Position numbers and translations under genes: made by a program. From positions 55,623-75,622 of IMG/VR virus record IMGVR_UViG_3300021142_000024: a stretch of 20,000 nucleotides of DNA. One strand, given 5' to 3'. This DNA comes from an uncultured virus (IMG/VR IMGVR_UViG_3300021142_000024) (lineage: Duplodnaviria; Heunggongvirae; Uroviricota; Caudoviricetes). Under the pieces are notes generated by a model. It saw nothing but the letters and a program-made list of their open reading frames with translations. It had not been told where the DNA came from and ran no database searches. This document shows positions 2,148 through 12,473 of the stretch, piece by piece. Positions within the stretch are counted from its first letter, which is position 1. The number at the start of each line of letters is the position of its first letter.

Positions 2148-3797
2148 TTACATACCCATGCCCATCATAGGATCTGGAGTGTCTTGCTCTTTATCTGATT
2201 TTTTTTCAAGTACCACTGCATCTACTGTGAGTATTGTACCAGCTACACTCGCTGCATTTTTTATAGAAGATATTACTACTTTTGTAGGATCAAGTAGACC
2301 AGCTTCAATACCATTTACTACTGCTCTATTTTTAGCATCAAATGTTGTAAATACATCGTCTTTAGAATTTACATTATATAAAATTTCATACCAATTCTCA
2401 ATACCTGAATTTGATAGAATTGTTTTAAATGGCGCATAGCAGGCAGTTTCTACTATAGAAAGAGCAATCTTTTCATTTGAATTCCAATTTATAGTATTAT
2501 TCTTTATAGACATAAATGCTTTGATAAGTGCAATACCACCGCCTGGAAGTATACCTTCTGCAAGTGCGGCTTTAGTCGCCAGAAGTGCATCTTCTACTCT
2601 GTCTTTCTTTTCTTTGATCTCAATTTCAGAATTTCCACCTACATTTATAATAGCAACTCCACCTACAAGTTTACCAAGACGCTCTTGAAGTTTCTCTTTT
2701 TCAAAAAATGATGTTGCACTTTCTATCTGCTCTTTAATCTCATTTGCTCTATTAGAAATTGCTGTCTCATCCCCTTTACCATCTACTATTGTAGTAGTCT
2801 CTTTAGCTACTGTGGCAAGACGTGATTTACCTAGATATTTATCTAATTCTGAAGATGAGAGTTTATCAAGTTTATGTCCTTTGCTTTTTGACATTACTGT
2901 ACCTCCAGTAAGAATTGCCATATCTTCAAGAATCAAAGTTCTTCTATCTCCAAAGTCTGGTGCTTTTACTGCACATACTTTTACTACATTTCGCATTTTA
3001 TTTACGATCATTAGTGCGAGTGCCTCATCTCCAAAGTCTTCTGCAATTACTAGAAGTGATCTATTTTCAGTATTTGCTTTCTGTAGAAATGGAATCATCT
3101 CAGCTGCAGTTTGAATACGACCATCATAGAGCATAATATAGCAATCATCTAGTACTGCATTCATTGTGGTATTATTAGTCACAAAATATGGACTCTTATA
3201 TCCACGATCAAATTGCATACCTTCAACTACTTCAAGAGTAGTTTCACCGGTCTTAGATTCTTCAATAGTCACAATACCTTCACGACCAACTTTATCTATA
3301 GCAGCAGAAATCAGCTCTCCTACTTCAATATCATTATTACCTGAGATAGTTGCCACTTGTTTAATTTGATCTTCTGTGCTGACATCTACTGATAGTGATT
3401 TAAGTTGATCTATAATCATAGAGACTGTCTTATCAATACCGTGCTTAACTTCTACTGCATTAACTCCTTGACGTATAGTCTTCATTCCCCCTTGAATCAT
3501 CTTTGTTGCAAGTAATGTAGATGTTGTTGTACCATCACCGGCCTCATTTGCTGATTTAATTGATACTTGTTTTACCATCTGTGCTCCAAGATCTTCTATA
3601 TCATTTTCAAGTCTATTAAAGGCCTTTGAGCAAGTTACTCCGTCTTTTGTGGCTTTTACTTCACCATAAGGTTCACGTATTAATACTGTGCGACCTCCTG
3701 GACCGAGTGTTGATGATACTATATCATTGAGTTTATTAATTCCAGCAAGAAGTTGCTCTTTAAGTTCTGTCCCTATTAAATGTTTTGTTTCGCTCAT
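2148..3797 (-). CDS. groEL: chaperonin GroEL (phage-encoded)
   Basis: 549 aa with [58 protein letters not shown] and an MMGMGM tail. Confidence 0.98.
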
Positions 3798-4787: not shown

Positions 4788-5078
4788 TTAATTTATTATT
4801 GCTAAAATTTCTGTTTCTCTTGTTATATAATAATCTTGTCCTTCTAGTTTTACTGACATTGATCCAAGTTTTGGAATAAGTACAATGTCTCCTACATTTA
4901 GATTTGAAGGGACTTCTTTATCAGTGTGATAGTTCCAAGCATTTGAGATTGCTACTACTTCACCTGATTCTGGACGCTCTTTGCCCATGTCTGGAAGGAT
5001 AATATTTCCTACCATCTCTTCCGATGTTTCTACTGGTCGCAGTACTACATGACCATTTAGTGGTTTTAATTTTGACAT
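4788..5078 (-). CDS. groES: co-chaperonin GroES
   Basis: LKPLNGHVVL, mobile loop GNIILPD, GEVVAIS, VGDIVL and RETEILAII. 96 aa. Confidence 0.96.
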   Translation of the reverse strand: MSKLKPLNGHVVLRPVETSEEMVGNIILPDMGKERPESGEVVAISNAWNYHTDKEVPSNLNVGDIVLIPKLGSMSVKLEGQDYYITRETEILAIIN

Positions 5079-8169: not shown

Positions 8170-8985
8170 TTATAATTCTATACTCAATCTTTTAAGAAAT
8201 CTCTTATATAATTGCTCATCAGTTGACCAAGCCTTAATCTTGACCAGCTCAGAATAAAAATTATCTCTTGCTGTCTCAATTCTGTCTTTTATCCACGGTC
8301 CTCTTAGGAATAAAAAAGGAACTGCTGTATTTTTATACTTATTATATACCTCATCGTAGCTCTTAGTCTTTATGTCAGAAAGAGCCTTAAATAGTTGGCT
8401 TTTAACTGCCGACATTGCCGCCTTATCCTTGTCTTTCTTTGCAAGCCCTGAGGCTATTGTATTTATCAGAGTTGAAGTATGTGCATCAAATTCTGCAGGT
8501 GAATTTAAGTGCGCTATAAGATCCTTTTCATATTGCTCTATTTTATCTGGGTTTGCATTCTTACTCGGGGCTTTAGGCGCTCTCACTCCAAGTTTTGCAT
8601 CTAATTCTGCATCATAGGCTTTTGGGTCTATAGCATGTACTAGTTCATGTTCTATGCTTGTTACAAAATTATACTCGTCTGTTAATTTTGAGAGATTTAC
8701 TATAACTGCCCTGTTCTGCTGGTCCATTCTAGCATAAGCATTATCTTTAGGATCATTATACAGTCCTAGACTTATCGATATTAAATTACCTCTAAGATCT
8801 TCTATATTAAATATATTCTTAAAGCTCTTAGGAATATACGGGTCTTGTATATAGCTTTTAGGTGATTTCTTTTTAAGAGAGTCTGCATTCTTTTTTATGT
8901 AAGAAAACGCAGAATCAGCCTTTAATAACTGACTCTGCGGTATCTTTATTATCTTCTCAGTAAGTAGATCTACTAATTTTATCAT
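8170..8985 (-). CDS. HExxH (zincin-like) motif protein with MIKLxxLLxE N-terminus
   Basis: IEHELVHAID plus a downstream possible third ligand in SPAEFDAH. Confidence 0.6.
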   Translation of the reverse strand: MIKLVDLLTEKIIKIPQSQLLKADSAFSYIKKNADSLKKKSPKSYIQDPYIPKSFKNIFNIEDLRGNLISISLGLYNDPKDNAYARMDQQNRAVIVNLSKLTDEYNFVTSIEHELVHAIDPKAYDAELDAKLGVRAPKAPSKNANPDKIEQYEKDLIAHLNSPAEFDAHTSTLINTIASGLAKKDKDKAAMSAVKSQLFKALSDIKTKSYDEVYNKYKNTAVPFLFLRGPWIKDRIETARDNFYSELVKIKAWSTDEQLYKRFLKRLSIEL

Positions 8986-8999
8986 ATATTATAAATATG

Positions 9000-10058
9000 C
9001 TATACTGCTATCTCACATGCATTTCCAGCACATGCCACTTGATCCTTAAGATCTGTATTATCATCTGACTCTATTACTTTTGATAAGTCTATATTTGTCA
9101 ATGATGTCATCATCTCTTCATATTTCTCCTTAGTGCAATCTTCAAAAGGTGCTTGGATATATGTATGATCTGAAAATGGAAGTACTGAAAGTCCATTATA
9201 ACAATTCTTATTCTCCCACATCCAATTACCAACTTCCTCCCACTCATTATCTTTAATTGATACTGTTGCAGAAATATTATGCGTATTTTGTCCAGTGATA
9301 TGACCAGGCTTAATCCAATATTCGTAAAAATGTTTTACTCTATTTAAAAGATCTAATGCTGATTCTGTTCTTAATATTGACCCTTGTGGAGCTCTTTGAG
9401 GTACTGATATTACTGCTGTATCATGTGGTCTAAAGTATTCATCTTGTACCAGCTCTGGATGATATATGCTTAGATATGTATAGATTGCTTCATTCTTACC
9501 TACTCTTATATTCCTGATATAATATTCATTATGCCATGCATGTATGCCAGAAGATGTGCCCAGGACTAAAGAAGATGTGCCTGAGGGTTTTATTGTAGTA
9601 CAACGAGCAGCAGAATTAATTCCTATGATTTTAGCCACCTCTAAATTAGTGCTTTTTACTATATTTGAGGCCATTTCAAGATCTAAATTTTGAACAACTC
9701 CAGATCCAATACCAGTCATACCAACTCCTATAAGTGCCTCTTTTTCTGTAGTTCTCTGCCAAACTGATCTAAGATAGTGGAAATTTGTATAACCAGCTTG
9801 TAATGTTCCAATTAGTGCAGCTGCTTTAACTCTTTTATTAAGATCTGCTTGATCTACTACATCTGATACATTTACTTCACATAAATTACAGAATTGGAAA
9901 GGACGTAGTGCAATTTCACAACAATTATGTACTAGTAATCCATTAGCAAAGAAGTTGTGATTTTTCTTCATACTAATATCATATACATCCTCATTTGATA
10001 CTATACTCTTTTTTATTATTTTTATTTTGGTAATTCCAGTAATCGAATTTCTTTCCAT
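9000..10058 (-). CDS. nrdJ: class II ribonucleotide reductase, C-terminal half, fused to the C-part of a split intein
   Basis: Residues 1-45 are IntC (VYDISM..NHNFFANGLLVHN). The extein then reads CCEIALRPFQFCNL, IGVGMTG, TTIKPSGTSS and C-terminal CAGNAC. Confidence 0.95.
   Translation of the reverse strand: MERNSITGITKIKIIKKSIVSNEDVYDISMKKNHNFFANGLLVHNCCEIALRPFQFCNLCEVNVSDVVDQADLNKRVKAAALIGTLQAGYTNFHYLRSVWQRTTEKEALIGVGMTGIGSGVVQNLDLEMASNIVKSTNLEVAKIIGINSAARCTTIKPSGTSSLVLGTSSGIHAWHNEYYIRNIRVGKNEAIYTYLSIYHPELVQDEYFRPHDTAVISVPQRAPQGSILRTESALDLLNRVKHFYEYWIKPGHITGQNTHNISATVSIKDNEWEEVGNWMWENKNCYNGLSVLPFSDHTYIQAPFEDCTKEKYEEMMTSLTNIDLSKVIESDDNTDLKDQVACAGNACEIAV
9924..10058 (-). mobile_element. split intein C-fragment (45 aa)
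   Basis: Block F VYDI, block G HNFFANGLLVHN, followed by +1 Cys. Lysine-rich. Confidence 0.93.
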
Positions 10059-10885
10059 TTTTTTAAATAGTTTATATTTTTTATTTTATATAAATTAATA
10101 TTCTGTATTAATGATACTTGTGTATTTATAACTTTTTTAAGTTTTTCAACTTTATAAGAATTAACAGTTAAATATCCCTTTATTTCTACGATAGCATTCA
10201 AATTATCATACTCATCATAAATAAAAAAATCTGGAGTATATTTAGTTCCATCATCTAATTTATAACTTTTAATTTCTGTGTCCCACTTCAGTTTATTTTC
10301 AGTTAGGTATTCAGCAAATATATACTCATAGGAACTTCTTAGCCAAACCCATTTATTTAAAATTCTATTATAATAATACCCCTGAACGCCTTTCCCATTA
10401 GAATTTTTTATTTTTAAATTTCTTCTAATTTCTTCATTGAACCACCCAGAATTCGACGCATATTCTTTTTTTGACTTATTTTTTCTAAAATTATTTAAAG
10501 ATTTATTTTCTATATTAGATTTATTAAGTTCTAATCCTAAAAAAATTAAAAATGATCTTGTTAGAGTATATCCAAGATTTAAAATAGAATTAATCCTTTT
10601 AATACCAAATCCTTTAGAATATTCTCTATAGATAATATCATAAGCTTTTTTAATAATATCTTTATTTTCAAATTTCCAAATATCTCTTAAAAATAAACGC
10701 CTGTTTGAAGCTCTACTAGAATTCCCTAATTCGATAATTCTTTTAGTCGAATATAATTTATAAAGTTGCTTATACTCATCAGATATTTTTATATTACAAC
10801 CTTTCTGAAATCTACCATACGATTCATTGTATACATCTAATATAAATTGAACTTCTTCTTTTGTAAAATTGGGGTACAAATCCAT
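10022..10885 (-). CDS. putative homing endonuclease of PD-(D/E)XK type between the split-intein halves
   Basis: C-terminal RSSYE...YTPDF...IVEIKG (TnsA-N/T7 endonuclease I-like active-site pattern) after a basic N-terminal region. Lower GC than the flanking nrdJ halves by eye. Confidence 0.8.
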   Translation of the reverse strand: MDLYPNFTKEEVQFILDVYNESYGRFQKGCNIKISDEYKQLYKLYSTKRIIELGNSSRASNRRLFLRDIWKFENKDIIKKAYDIIYREYSKGFGIKRINSILNLGYTLTRSFLIFLGLELNKSNIENKSLNNFRKNKSKKEYASNSGWFNEEIRRNLKIKNSNGKGVQGYYYNRILNKWVWLRSSYEYIFAEYLTENKLKWDTEIKSYKLDDGTKYTPDFFIYDEYDNLNAIVEIKGYLTVNSYKVEKLKKVINTQVSLIQNINLYKIKNINYLKKWKEIRLLELPK

Positions 10886-10910
10886 GTTATTATTTTACAA
10901 TAAATATCAA

Positions 10911-11261
10911 TTAAATTGAGATTAATACATCATCTTCAATTAATTTTGCTGCTTCTATCCAACCTCTATTTTCTGTATAGACTCTATGATCTGGAGTAAG
11001 TTTTATAGTTTGTCCATTATCTAAACTTAATTCTATTAATTCTGCATTTTCTTTTGTCTTTTTAGCCCAATTCATATAATCATATTCTAATTCCTTCGTA
11101 TCTTCATTAAATGTTAATACCATAGGAGGATAATCACTAGTTTCATATAAATCTACTAATATCTTCATTGGAATTTGATATACTACTCCTTCAGATAAAG
11201 ATTCATTTCCAGATACTCCATTGTGATCTTTTACAGTAATTAAAGAATCTCCTGAAATACA
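10911..11261 (-). mobile_element. split intein N-fragment (116 aa)
   Basis: Begins CISGDSLI (block A) after GTNP. Block B is LTPDHRVYT..GWIEAAKL...D. Acidic, ends at a stop. Confidence 0.93.
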
Positions 11262-12197
11262 CGGGTTTGTACCCCAATCTTTATCATTATTTAAGTAGAT
11301 ACCAGGCTCTCCACTGCCTGAATTTTTAATCTTATCCCAAAGACTCATAAAGAATTCTTTGGTTATTTTATTTCTAAGAAGTACTGCTGAGTTATTTGCT
11401 CTGCCACGTTGAGGATTAAGTTCCCACCAATTTCCAGATTTACAAGAAATCATTTCATCGTCATCAGCAGAAAATAGAGAAATCAGCGCAGCTCTACGAA
11501 TGCCTCCGGCTAATACTGCATCTGCAATATGACACACCATATCATGCACTTCTATTGAAGATAATTTATCTCCATTCTCCTTTTGACTTAATATGCTCTC
11601 TAATTTAAATAGACACTCTTTTAGTGGTTGAGGTCCTGGTGCTTTACCTCCTGAAGTAACAAGTGCTGCACCTTTAGGTCTAATATCAGAGAAATCAAAT
11701 TCTAGAGATGAGCTGCCTTCAAAATAAGATTTTACTAGAGCTTTTACTGCATCTGCCCAGCCTTCAATAGAATCATTGATTAAGAATCTCTTTTTTCTCT
11801 TTTTATTTGGAAGTTTTATCTCTGGTAACTTTTCTACGTGATGTTTTTGTACTGAAAATCCCACTCCAGTTCCACCTAGTAAAAGAAACATAATCTCTGA
11901 AAATGATCTATAATCATCTATAGGCAGATATGCACAGTTATAAATTCTATTTGGATTGATTTCGATAGACTTTCCTCCAAATTGAAGGCTTCTCATAGAA
12001 GGAAGTACTTTCTTGTCATAAACTAATTCATATGCATCTTCAATCTCTTTAGTTAATTGAGGGTACTTTTTAAGATGCATTTCCATGTTTCTCGTAACTA
12101 GATCTTCCCAAGTCTCTCTTCTTTGTAATTGCGGCAGATATTTTGAGTATTTCATATATACTGTAATATCTGATAATATTTTCTGTTCTATATTCAT
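10911..12197 (-). CDS. nrdJ: class II (B12-dependent) ribonucleotide reductase, N-terminal half, fused to the N-part of a split intein
   Basis: RRETWE, PSMRSLQFGG, YNCAY, GTGVGFS, IRPKG, GGIRRAALI, GEPG and GTNP, followed by IntN. Confidence 0.95.
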   Translation of the reverse strand: MNIEQKILSDITVYMKYSKYLPQLQRRETWEDLVTRNMEMHLKKYPQLTKEIEDAYELVYDKKVLPSMRSLQFGGKSIEINPNRIYNCAYLPIDDYRSFSEIMFLLLGGTGVGFSVQKHHVEKLPEIKLPNKKRKKRFLINDSIEGWADAVKALVKSYFEGSSSLEFDFSDIRPKGAALVTSGGKAPGPQPLKECLFKLESILSQKENGDKLSSIEVHDMVCHIADAVLAGGIRRAALISLFSADDDEMISCKSGNWWELNPQRGRANNSAVLLRNKITKEFFMSLWDKIKNSGSGEPGIYLNNDKDWGTNPCISGDSLITVKDHNGVSGNESLSEGVVYQIPMKILVDLYETSDYPPMVLTFNEDTKELEYDYMNWAKKTKENAELIELSLDNGQTIKLTPDHRVYTENRGWIEAAKLIEDDVLISI

Positions 12198-12272
12198 TAT
12201 TAAAATTTTGACAATATTTTATACTTTGGGCTCTGAGATGAGTCCATTAATTAGATCAATATTTTTAAAATA

Positions 12273-12473
12273 TTATTGACCTGGAGTCTTTGGATTTGAT
12301 ATTTTAGAAGGTCCTATTGTAGACAGTCTATTCAATTTGCTAGTGCTAAGTGAATTTTGATTAGTTGCATTTAATGCAGCAACACTGTCATTATATTTAC
12401 TAGGCGCATCAGTTGTTCTGTAATTATTGTTCTTAGTTGCCTTTTTAAATAGATCTATTATAAAATTTGCCAT
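12273..12473 (-). CDS. hypothetical protein (66 aa)
   Basis: Co-oriented ORF with the TATTTAT motif upstream. Confidence 0.65.
   Translation of the reverse strand: MANFIIDLFKKATKNNNYRTTDAPSKYNDSVAALNATNQNSLSTSKLNRLSTIGPSKISNPKTPGQ

Follow-up and report, generated by a model that had tools for sequence, protein, structure and literature searches.

A phage class II ribonucleotide reductase gene fractured by a split intein and a free-standing putative homing endonuclease gene

Results and discussion

The fractured nrdJ locus

The stretch of DNA analysed here (the window) is 20,000 nucleotides (nt) long and lies at the very end of a 75.6-kb virus record from IMG/VR (IMGVR_UViG_3300021142_000024, Caudoviricetes), the completeness of which was estimated by CheckV as ~48%. 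It carries a ribonucleotide reductase (RNR) gene, nrdJ, that is divided into two genes: an N-gene, which ends in the N-terminal half of an intein (IntN), and a C-gene, which starts with the C-terminal half (IntC). A free-standing open reading frame (ORF) for a putative homing endonuclease is located between them (Table 1). No frameshift or internal stop was present in any of the three ORFs in the ORF list.

Table 1. Positions of the nrdJ halves, intein halves and endonuclease ORF in the window (aa, amino acids)
Feature	Position	Strand	Details
nrdJ N-gene	10911..12197	minus	428 aa; ends ...DWGTNPCISGDS...TPDH...DDVLISI and stop (ORF list)
nrdJ N-extein	11262..12197	minus	N-gene residues 1-312; terminus ...DKDWGTNP
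IntN	10914..11261	minus	N-gene residues 313-428; 116 aa; Cys1 codon 11259-11261
Clade-specific insert after block A	11178..11231	minus	~intein residues 11-28, KDHNGVSGNESLSEGVVY; net ~+15 residues
IntN stop codon	10911-10913	minus	
Spacer between IntN stop and endonuclease start	10886..10910	minus	25 nt, AT-rich
Putative homing endonuclease ORF, free-standing	10022..10885	minus	287 aa
Overlap of endonuclease 3' end and C-gene start	10022..10058	minus	37 nt
nrdJ C-gene	9000..10058	minus	352 aa; starts MERNS...NHNFFANGLLVHNCCEIAL (ORF list)
IntC	9924..10058	minus	C-gene residues 1-45; 45 aa; ends ...NHNFFANGLLVHN (His44, Asn45)
nrdJ C-extein	9000..9923	minus	begins CCEIAL; closes ...ACAGNACEIAV and stop

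Intein halves, exteins and splice junction

Both intein halves were recognised by NCBIfam models above their cut-offs, with intein_Nterm matching residues 313-408 of the N-gene product (32.7 bits, cut-off 24.5) and intein_Cterm (TIGR01443) matching residues 24-46 of the C-gene product (34.6 bits, cut-off 15.6). IntN is acidic (net charge -12, isoelectric point (pI) 4.36) and IntC is basic (net charge +3, pI 9.60). The closest solved relative is NrdJ-1 (8ubs), a much-used ultrafast ligation tool, which was matched by IntN at E 5.2e-14 and by IntC at E 1.9e-4. A first-pass annotation of the window had proposed a natural split intein in nrdJ, with an N-gene ending in GTNP followed by a 116-aa acidic IntN and a C-gene starting with a 45-aa basic IntC that ends in VHN ahead of CCEIAL. 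Both boundaries proved correct to the residue, and the match of IntN to NrdJ-1 puts the split intein far beyond chance.

The residues expected for splicing are present in both halves. Cys1, the nucleophile of a class 1 intein, is found in CISGDS straight after GTNP and is invariant in the alignment of IntN relatives (alignment A3), as is NRG. Block B, TPDH, is located at IntN residues 89-92, with T, P and H invariant in the 8 rows, and at the terminus of IntC (...LLVHN, then C), H44, N45 and C46 are invariant in alignment A4. The splicing residues (Cys1, TP.H, HN and Cys+1) are invariant across eight diverged pairs, the relatives being at 36-53% identity.

The two exteins probably represent an RTPR-type enzyme. 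The N-extein matched TIGR02505 (RTPR) with 148.4 bits as well as PF21995 (RNR-II insertion domain), and the C-extein matched TIGR02505 with 130.3 bits, each half having been scored alone against a model with a cut-off of 340 bits for the whole protein. The phrog_367 ribonucleotide reductase profile (701 positions) was tiled by the exteins at 29-388 and 381-697. The NrdJ proteins of Microcystis phage Mel-JY01 (PP395634.1, 617 aa) and Vibrio phage VPs20 (OP056089.1, 631 aa), which are encoded by single genes with no intein and no endonuclease, are colinear with both exteins at full length and 58-63% identical to them. They read GTNPCCEIAL and GTNPCCEIGL, respectively, across the junction, the former being the sequence that the first-pass annotation gave for the joined exteins. 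A tblastn match in Mel-JY01 that seemed to span IntN (98% coverage) was an alignment artefact, the gene being an uninterrupted nrdJ.

The +1 Cys aligns with Cys408 of the Lactobacillus leichmannii RTPR (1l1l), with NPC408GEI placed over HNCCEI. Cys408 is the established thiyl-radical residue, and the insertion point is directly N-terminal to the thiyl-radical Cys of NPCxE, so that the +1 nucleophile and this Cys are one residue, as had been annotated. The wording "thiyl radical active site" in Dassa et al. 2009 (PMC2677866) fits this role of Cys408.

Probable trans-splicing and its alternatives

The complex between IntN and IntC, modelled with six extein residues on each half, obtained a score of 0.69, whereas the best of three controls had 0.01. 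Among solved complexes, 116 of 157 come up to this score, as do 2 of 215 mismatched pairs, counts that are only rough with our own alignments. Three runs agreed in at least 95% of contacts, and the partner predicted local distance difference test score (pLDDT) was at least 67. Because similar split-intein complexes have been solved, this outcome attests to likeness to them and may be owed to structures that the predictor had memorised. The residues of the insert after block A were not among the listed interface residues, which is no evidence against a contact.

Selection was assessed from non-synonymous (dN) and synonymous (dS) substitutions against a 92% identical relative (L086). The dN/dS ratio was 0.09 for IntC (8 synonymous and 4 non-synonymous differences) and 0.05 for residues 182-287 of the endonuclease, and the C-extein gave a dN of 0.096 with saturated synonymous sites. 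The dS of the cassette (0.42-0.72) was below that of the saturated C-extein, and its G+C content (endonuclease 22.8%, IntC 24.4%, IntN 27.6%) was below the 34% of the exteins. Both are consistent with a movement of the cassette that is more recent than the divergence of the host genes, as far as one pair with small counts can indicate.

From these sequence features and models, we consider it highly probable that a mobile cassette, made up of IntN, a free-standing homing endonuclease gene and IntC, has fractured a phage class II (RTPR-type, B12-dependent) RNR gene at this locus, and that the two products are joined by trans-splicing; the intein itself very probably trans-splices. The acidic IntN and the basic IntC would associate to give the HINT fold, and the conserved residues suggest class 1 splicing, which would start with an N-S acyl shift at Cys1, continue with trans-thioesterification by the +1 Cys and end with the cyclisation of Asn45, aided by His44, followed by an S-N shift. 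The product would be a single 619-aa NrdJ with the junction GTNP-CCEIAL. Splicing would turn the +1 Cys into the thiyl-radical Cys of the active-site loop, and NrdJ should therefore be inactive beforehand. The three ORFs are on the same strand, with no terminator-like site between them on the minus strand, and are probably co-transcribed.

Several points weigh against this interpretation. The support for trans-splicing comes entirely from sequence and models, and the insert after block A might affect splicing. A second intact RNR is possible elsewhere in the phage because of the incompleteness of the record, the 75.6 kb of which contain no second RNR barrel domain and no second intein. Promoter-like sites were at chance level (23 found, 23.7 expected) and gave no evidence for an internal promoter, and no Shine-Dalgarno-like sequence was evident by eye ahead of the endonuclease or the C-gene start.

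It could also be that nrdJ is a dead gene, broken by the selfish element and yielding no functional protein. Cassettes of this kind do degrade, as in a 99% identical locus (L004) where the endonuclease has been cut to 99 aa, and with an incomplete record another RNR could exist. However, all three ORFs are intact here, the exteins retain their full-length identity to intact phage NrdJ, the C-extein shows a low dN against saturated synonymous sites, and 69 of 80 metagenomic loci from many contigs have retained the split layout (see below). With intact frames and purifying selection, we give a dead gene only a slim chance.

Alternatively, the intein halves could hold the NrdJ fragments together non-covalently, giving an enzyme that works without being spliced, in the way published for the endonuclease-fractured NrdA of phage Aeh1 (PMC3045599), and the tight IntN-IntC association in the complex model would suit such an assembly too. 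In nrdJ of the window, however, the protein is interrupted within the NPCxE active-site loop, immediately ahead of the thiyl-radical Cys, which would leave ~160 intein residues in the active site, and all splicing residues are kept in the diverged relatives, with IntC under purifying selection. The position of the break and the conservation of the splicing residues make this alternative slimmer still. An artefact of assembly or sequencing, or joining at the RNA level as an intron, is scarcely conceivable, as the identical arrangement occurs in other contigs at 100, 99, 92 and 70% identity (L003-L005, L084-L086, L089; some maybe from the same samples as the window), the interrupting sequence codes for both intein halves, complete and in the reading frame of the exteins, and no Rfam family matched positions 8900-12400 at E up to 1.

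Comparison with known split inteins

The fractured three-gene layout has been known since 2009 (Dassa et al., PMC2677866), and the match to it that the first-pass annotation had claimed holds. The same-strand order is the same; the non-coding gap in those fractured genes is 27-51 nt, compared with 25 nt here, and in the window the endonuclease ORF and the C-gene also overlap by 37 nt. An overlap of the same kind was present in three related loci (L006, L008 and L018). The endonuclease start was also considered for a regulatory hairpin of the kind described by Dassa et al. 2009; this was rejected, since the 9-bp stem around the AUG had a z of -0.43 and 62 of 200 shuffled sequences folded as well; a hairpin at the C-gene start (z -1.43 against shuffles) is not claimed.

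The site at the thiyl-radical Cys is, according to the same report, the commonest insertion point of RNR inteins and is occupied by NrdA split inteins, with the NrdJ insertion point one residue C-terminal of the NrdA site (PMC2677866). The intein of the window shares the host enzyme (NrdJ) and the fractured three-gene layout with NrdJ-1 and NrdJ-2, and in NrdJ-1, too, IntN is acidic and IntC basic. The IntC of NrdJ-1 ends in VHN followed by S and that of NrdA in HN followed by C (PMC2677866 Figure S1), and the native exteins of NrdJ-1 are NPC and SEI, with an obligate +1 Ser (bioRxiv 10.64898/2026.03.03.709324). These two sources bear out the statement in the first-pass annotation that the NrdJ-1 junction is NPC/SEI (a slash marks the insertion point), one residue downstream of the present one. 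The site in the window, NP/C, is accordingly one residue N-terminal to NPC/S, its +1 residue is Cys and not the obligate Ser, and its 116-aa IntN has a 15-residue insert after block A, whereas the IntN of NrdJ-1 has 105 aa (counted in Figure S1, PMC2677866). Because the insertion point and the +1 residue differ, the window intein is not allelic with NrdJ-1.

A closer counterpart in position is provided by NrdA-1 to -7 and the contiguous RNR inteins at the thiyl-radical Cys, which share both the insertion point and the Cys +1. By eye in Figure S1 (PMC2677866), the motifs TPDH.VYT.NRG and NFFAN..LVHN are common to the window intein and the NrdA inteins, and NrdA-1 likewise has an insert after block A. 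The host is different, being a class II RTPR-type NrdJ here and a class I NrdA there.

The suggestion that this is possibly a new split intein holds in part. No close relative of IntN was present in 50,697 deposited phage records, the best match having ~31% identity, and literature searches, none of them aimed specifically at this particular intein, brought up no paper on it, so the intein appears to be uncharacterised. The insertion site, on the other hand, is the classical RNR site, and the novelty was overrated in the first-pass annotation.

The insert-bearing clade

The insert after block A stands opposite a 15-column gap in six insert-less relatives. When the junction together with IntN was used as a query against 5.8 billion proteins, 62 sequences were returned, of which 61 could be parsed. 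Among these related metagenomic N-halves, 31 of 61 have the single-Cys junction and the insert, 19 have the single-Cys junction without the insert and 11 read NPCC. Within the insert-bearing rows, P0051 has a shorter insert and P0052 has TGDH instead of TPDH. A maximum-likelihood tree built from the 61 IntN sequences sets the 31 rows with the insert on one side of a branch with a support of 100/100, and on this tree the NPCC rows need 4 changes, at least 3 of which are forced by well-supported branches. The insert, which the first-pass annotation had called unusual, is thus real, with ~15 extra residues over the six relatives, but it is not unusual, being present in 31 of the 61 N-halves and in a contiguous intein. 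One further row, P0064, is nested among the NPC/C inteins and reads NPCFLTGDT, which could reflect a change of Cys1 to Phe or a register shifted back; it may be misclassed.

The contiguous intein (L007:21-494) is a natural 158-aa mini-intein with the same insert, located at FNP/C...VVHN/CVEIGM and 51% identical to the window IntN (alignment A6). It is the endonuclease-free, unsplit state of the insert-bearing clade. Its model is a HINT domain (pLDDT 93.2) with 8ubs as the best match (E 2.5e-12, TM 0.79/0.83, 36% identity), and in the L007 model the equivalent of the insert has short strand segments (DSSP) in a block of pLDDT 84-89. A contiguous relative without the insert was found at NP/C in L024. 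The phage of the window is represented in IMG/VR by three complete, near-identical loci (L003-L005) and by a fragment of 38 residues (L022), and L006 is a split relative with the insert.

The loci found can be set side by side as stages of the cassette: a contiguous mini-intein (L007), a split intein with an intact endonuclease, one with a truncated endonuclease (L004) and a split form without endonuclease (L020). In L020:4333-4389, IntN and IntC are just 55 nt apart. Two further split relatives have a gap with a short 124-aa ORF (L021:4378-4752) or an 803-nt gap with no plus-strand ORF of at least 50 aa (L019:4378-5182). In L004:4416-7371 (IMG/VR, IntN 99% identical), which is of the same phage lineage as the window, nrdJ is in three pieces. 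The 99 aa of its first endonuclease are what is left after an internal deletion, and a second split intein in the C-extein, at KPSG/TSSLVLG (Cys1, Thr +1), encloses a 381-aa ORF with a match to REase_MTES_1575 (E 2.6e-8, below cut-off).

With regard to applications, the clade represents a relative of NrdJ-1 in which Cys +1 is combined with a conserved insert of 15 residues; it comprises at least 31 sequence clusters, and its members are candidate orthogonal split inteins.

The putative endonuclease between the halves

The 287-aa ORF, which the first-pass annotation did not mention although it lay within the region described, was modelled with AlphaFold2 (AF2) at pLDDT 86.8 and has a helical N-terminal part (~1-160) and a C-terminal domain (~165-287). 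Sequence searches gave little information about it. No Pfam or NCBIfam family was matched, neither phmmer nor a profile search of PDB sequences (profile at E up to 10, 3r3p included) gave anything usable, and the PHROG matches were weak (best 3.5e-5; families of unknown function, endonuclease and resolvase). All 21 database relatives are named "hypothetical protein" and none has a Pfam domain, and the best match among cultured phages (50,697 deposited records) was 24% identical at E 8e-4. Rows of the ESM Atlas, which serve as leads only, fell into Endonuclease I-like, DUF1064, TnsA-like N, HTH and NUMOD3 clusters (0.87-0.94).

More was gained from the fold, with a domain-level match obtained by VIA-align only. 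The best match of residues 165-287 was TnsA (1t0f, Z 8.2, root mean square deviation (rmsd) 3.7, 120 aligned), followed by a long series of other restriction-endonuclease-like folds, including Bax1 (Z 5.9), VRR-NUC (Z 5.6) and Vsr (1cw0, Z 5.1), and I-Bth0305I (3r3p) was matched at Z 4.7 (rmsd 3.2, 74 aligned). With Foldseek, the best match was 1wdj at E 5e-3, and there was nothing at E 1e-3 or below. Residues E187, P218, D219, E234 and K236 (E, PD and ExK) are among those that do not vary over an alignment of 20 rows, in which no invariant or nearly invariant His was found. From these invariant residues and the restriction-endonuclease-like fold, the ORF is therefore predicted to work as a PD-(D/E)xK nuclease.

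The comparison with I-Bth0305I and the EDxHD family (PMC3239194) is instructive, as in both cases a free-standing endonuclease is located between split-intein halves and has a two-part build with a C-terminal restriction-endonuclease-like domain, the fold similarity being weak. In EDxHD enzymes the His is invariant, whereas the present family has E187, PD219 and E234-x-K236 without a conserved His. A Vsr-like EDxHD assignment was rejected for this reason, the defining catalytic His not being conserved, and because no PDB sequence was matched at E up to 10. Dassa et al. 2009 describe some ORFs of fractured genes as "Vsr-like", and the present endonuclease may or may not be among them. The targets of the endonuclease are most likely RNR alleles without the endonuclease or the intein, and its only role would be the spread of the cassette.

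Insertion registers in metagenomic loci

A scan of metagenome contigs with a profile of the endonuclease returned 149 relatives, the best 80 of which were used for the counts of loci. In all 80, the endonuclease adjoins halves of this intein family in RNR genes; it sits between IntN and IntC in 69, and the remaining 11 loci run into a contig end, 0-114 nt away, on the side where a half is missing. All junctions that could be read were RNR junctions. On the C side, 5 of the 80 were of the window type (NP/C...HN/CC), 45 read NP/C...HN/C followed by another residue, 19 read NPC/C...HN/CE and 9 read NPC/C...HN/S, as in NrdJ-1, with 2 loci having no C side. Both sides were read in 8 of the 9 NrdJ-1-type loci, which carry the same endonuclease family. 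The count of Cys on the N side agreed wherever both sides were read, except in L155, which was read by eye as NP/C.

According to these junction readings, the endonuclease family appears tied to the intein family, with one cassette family occupying two adjacent registers, and by genomic association the endonuclease family seems to be dedicated to this intein family. A wider reading, which we put forward tentatively and on balance doubt, is that the 287-aa ORF belongs to an unnamed, intein-dedicated lineage of PD-ExK homing endonucleases with a TnsA-like fold, unlike the GIY-YIG and EDxHD types that have been described in fractured genes, and that it has shifted together with its split intein by one codon, more than once, over the Cys-Cys of NPCCE, the insert clade being an orthogonal and fast Cys+1 relative of NrdJ-1. 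A one-codon shift of this kind would result in homologous cassettes at NP/C and NPC/C in NrdJ genes with identical junction sequences (DKDWGTNPCCEIALRP). With two adjacent registers served by one endonuclease family, and with the cassette stages described above, the co-evolution of an intein and its free-standing endonuclease becomes directly testable.

In seven loci (L105, L115, L116, L122, L123, L134 and L140), the C-extein contains a second IntN-like match (E 1e-4 to 2e-8), several hundred bases further downstream, so that RNR genes with more than one fracture may be frequent.

Genomic context

The locus adds a well-documented, intact example to the class of fractured genes, and for the biology of the phage it represents an ordinary selfish element in the replication module. 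Its neighbours, all on the minus strand, encode a single-stranded DNA-binding protein, a UvsX-like recombinase, an exonuclease, a DnaB-like helicase, DNA polymerase A, GroES, GroEL and dUTPase. The nrdJ of Mel-JY01, like that of the window, follows a helicase gene.

The chaperonin genes adjoin the replication module; GroEL (549 aa, 2148-3797 minus) matched phrog_5725 at E 2.3e-134, and GroES (96 aa) is located at 4788-5078 minus. Directly downstream of the nrdJ C-gene is a 271-aa ORF (8170-8985 minus) with no PHROG match at E 1e-5 or below, and a terminator-like hairpin on the minus strand (8939-8908) lies within the 5' part of this ORF.

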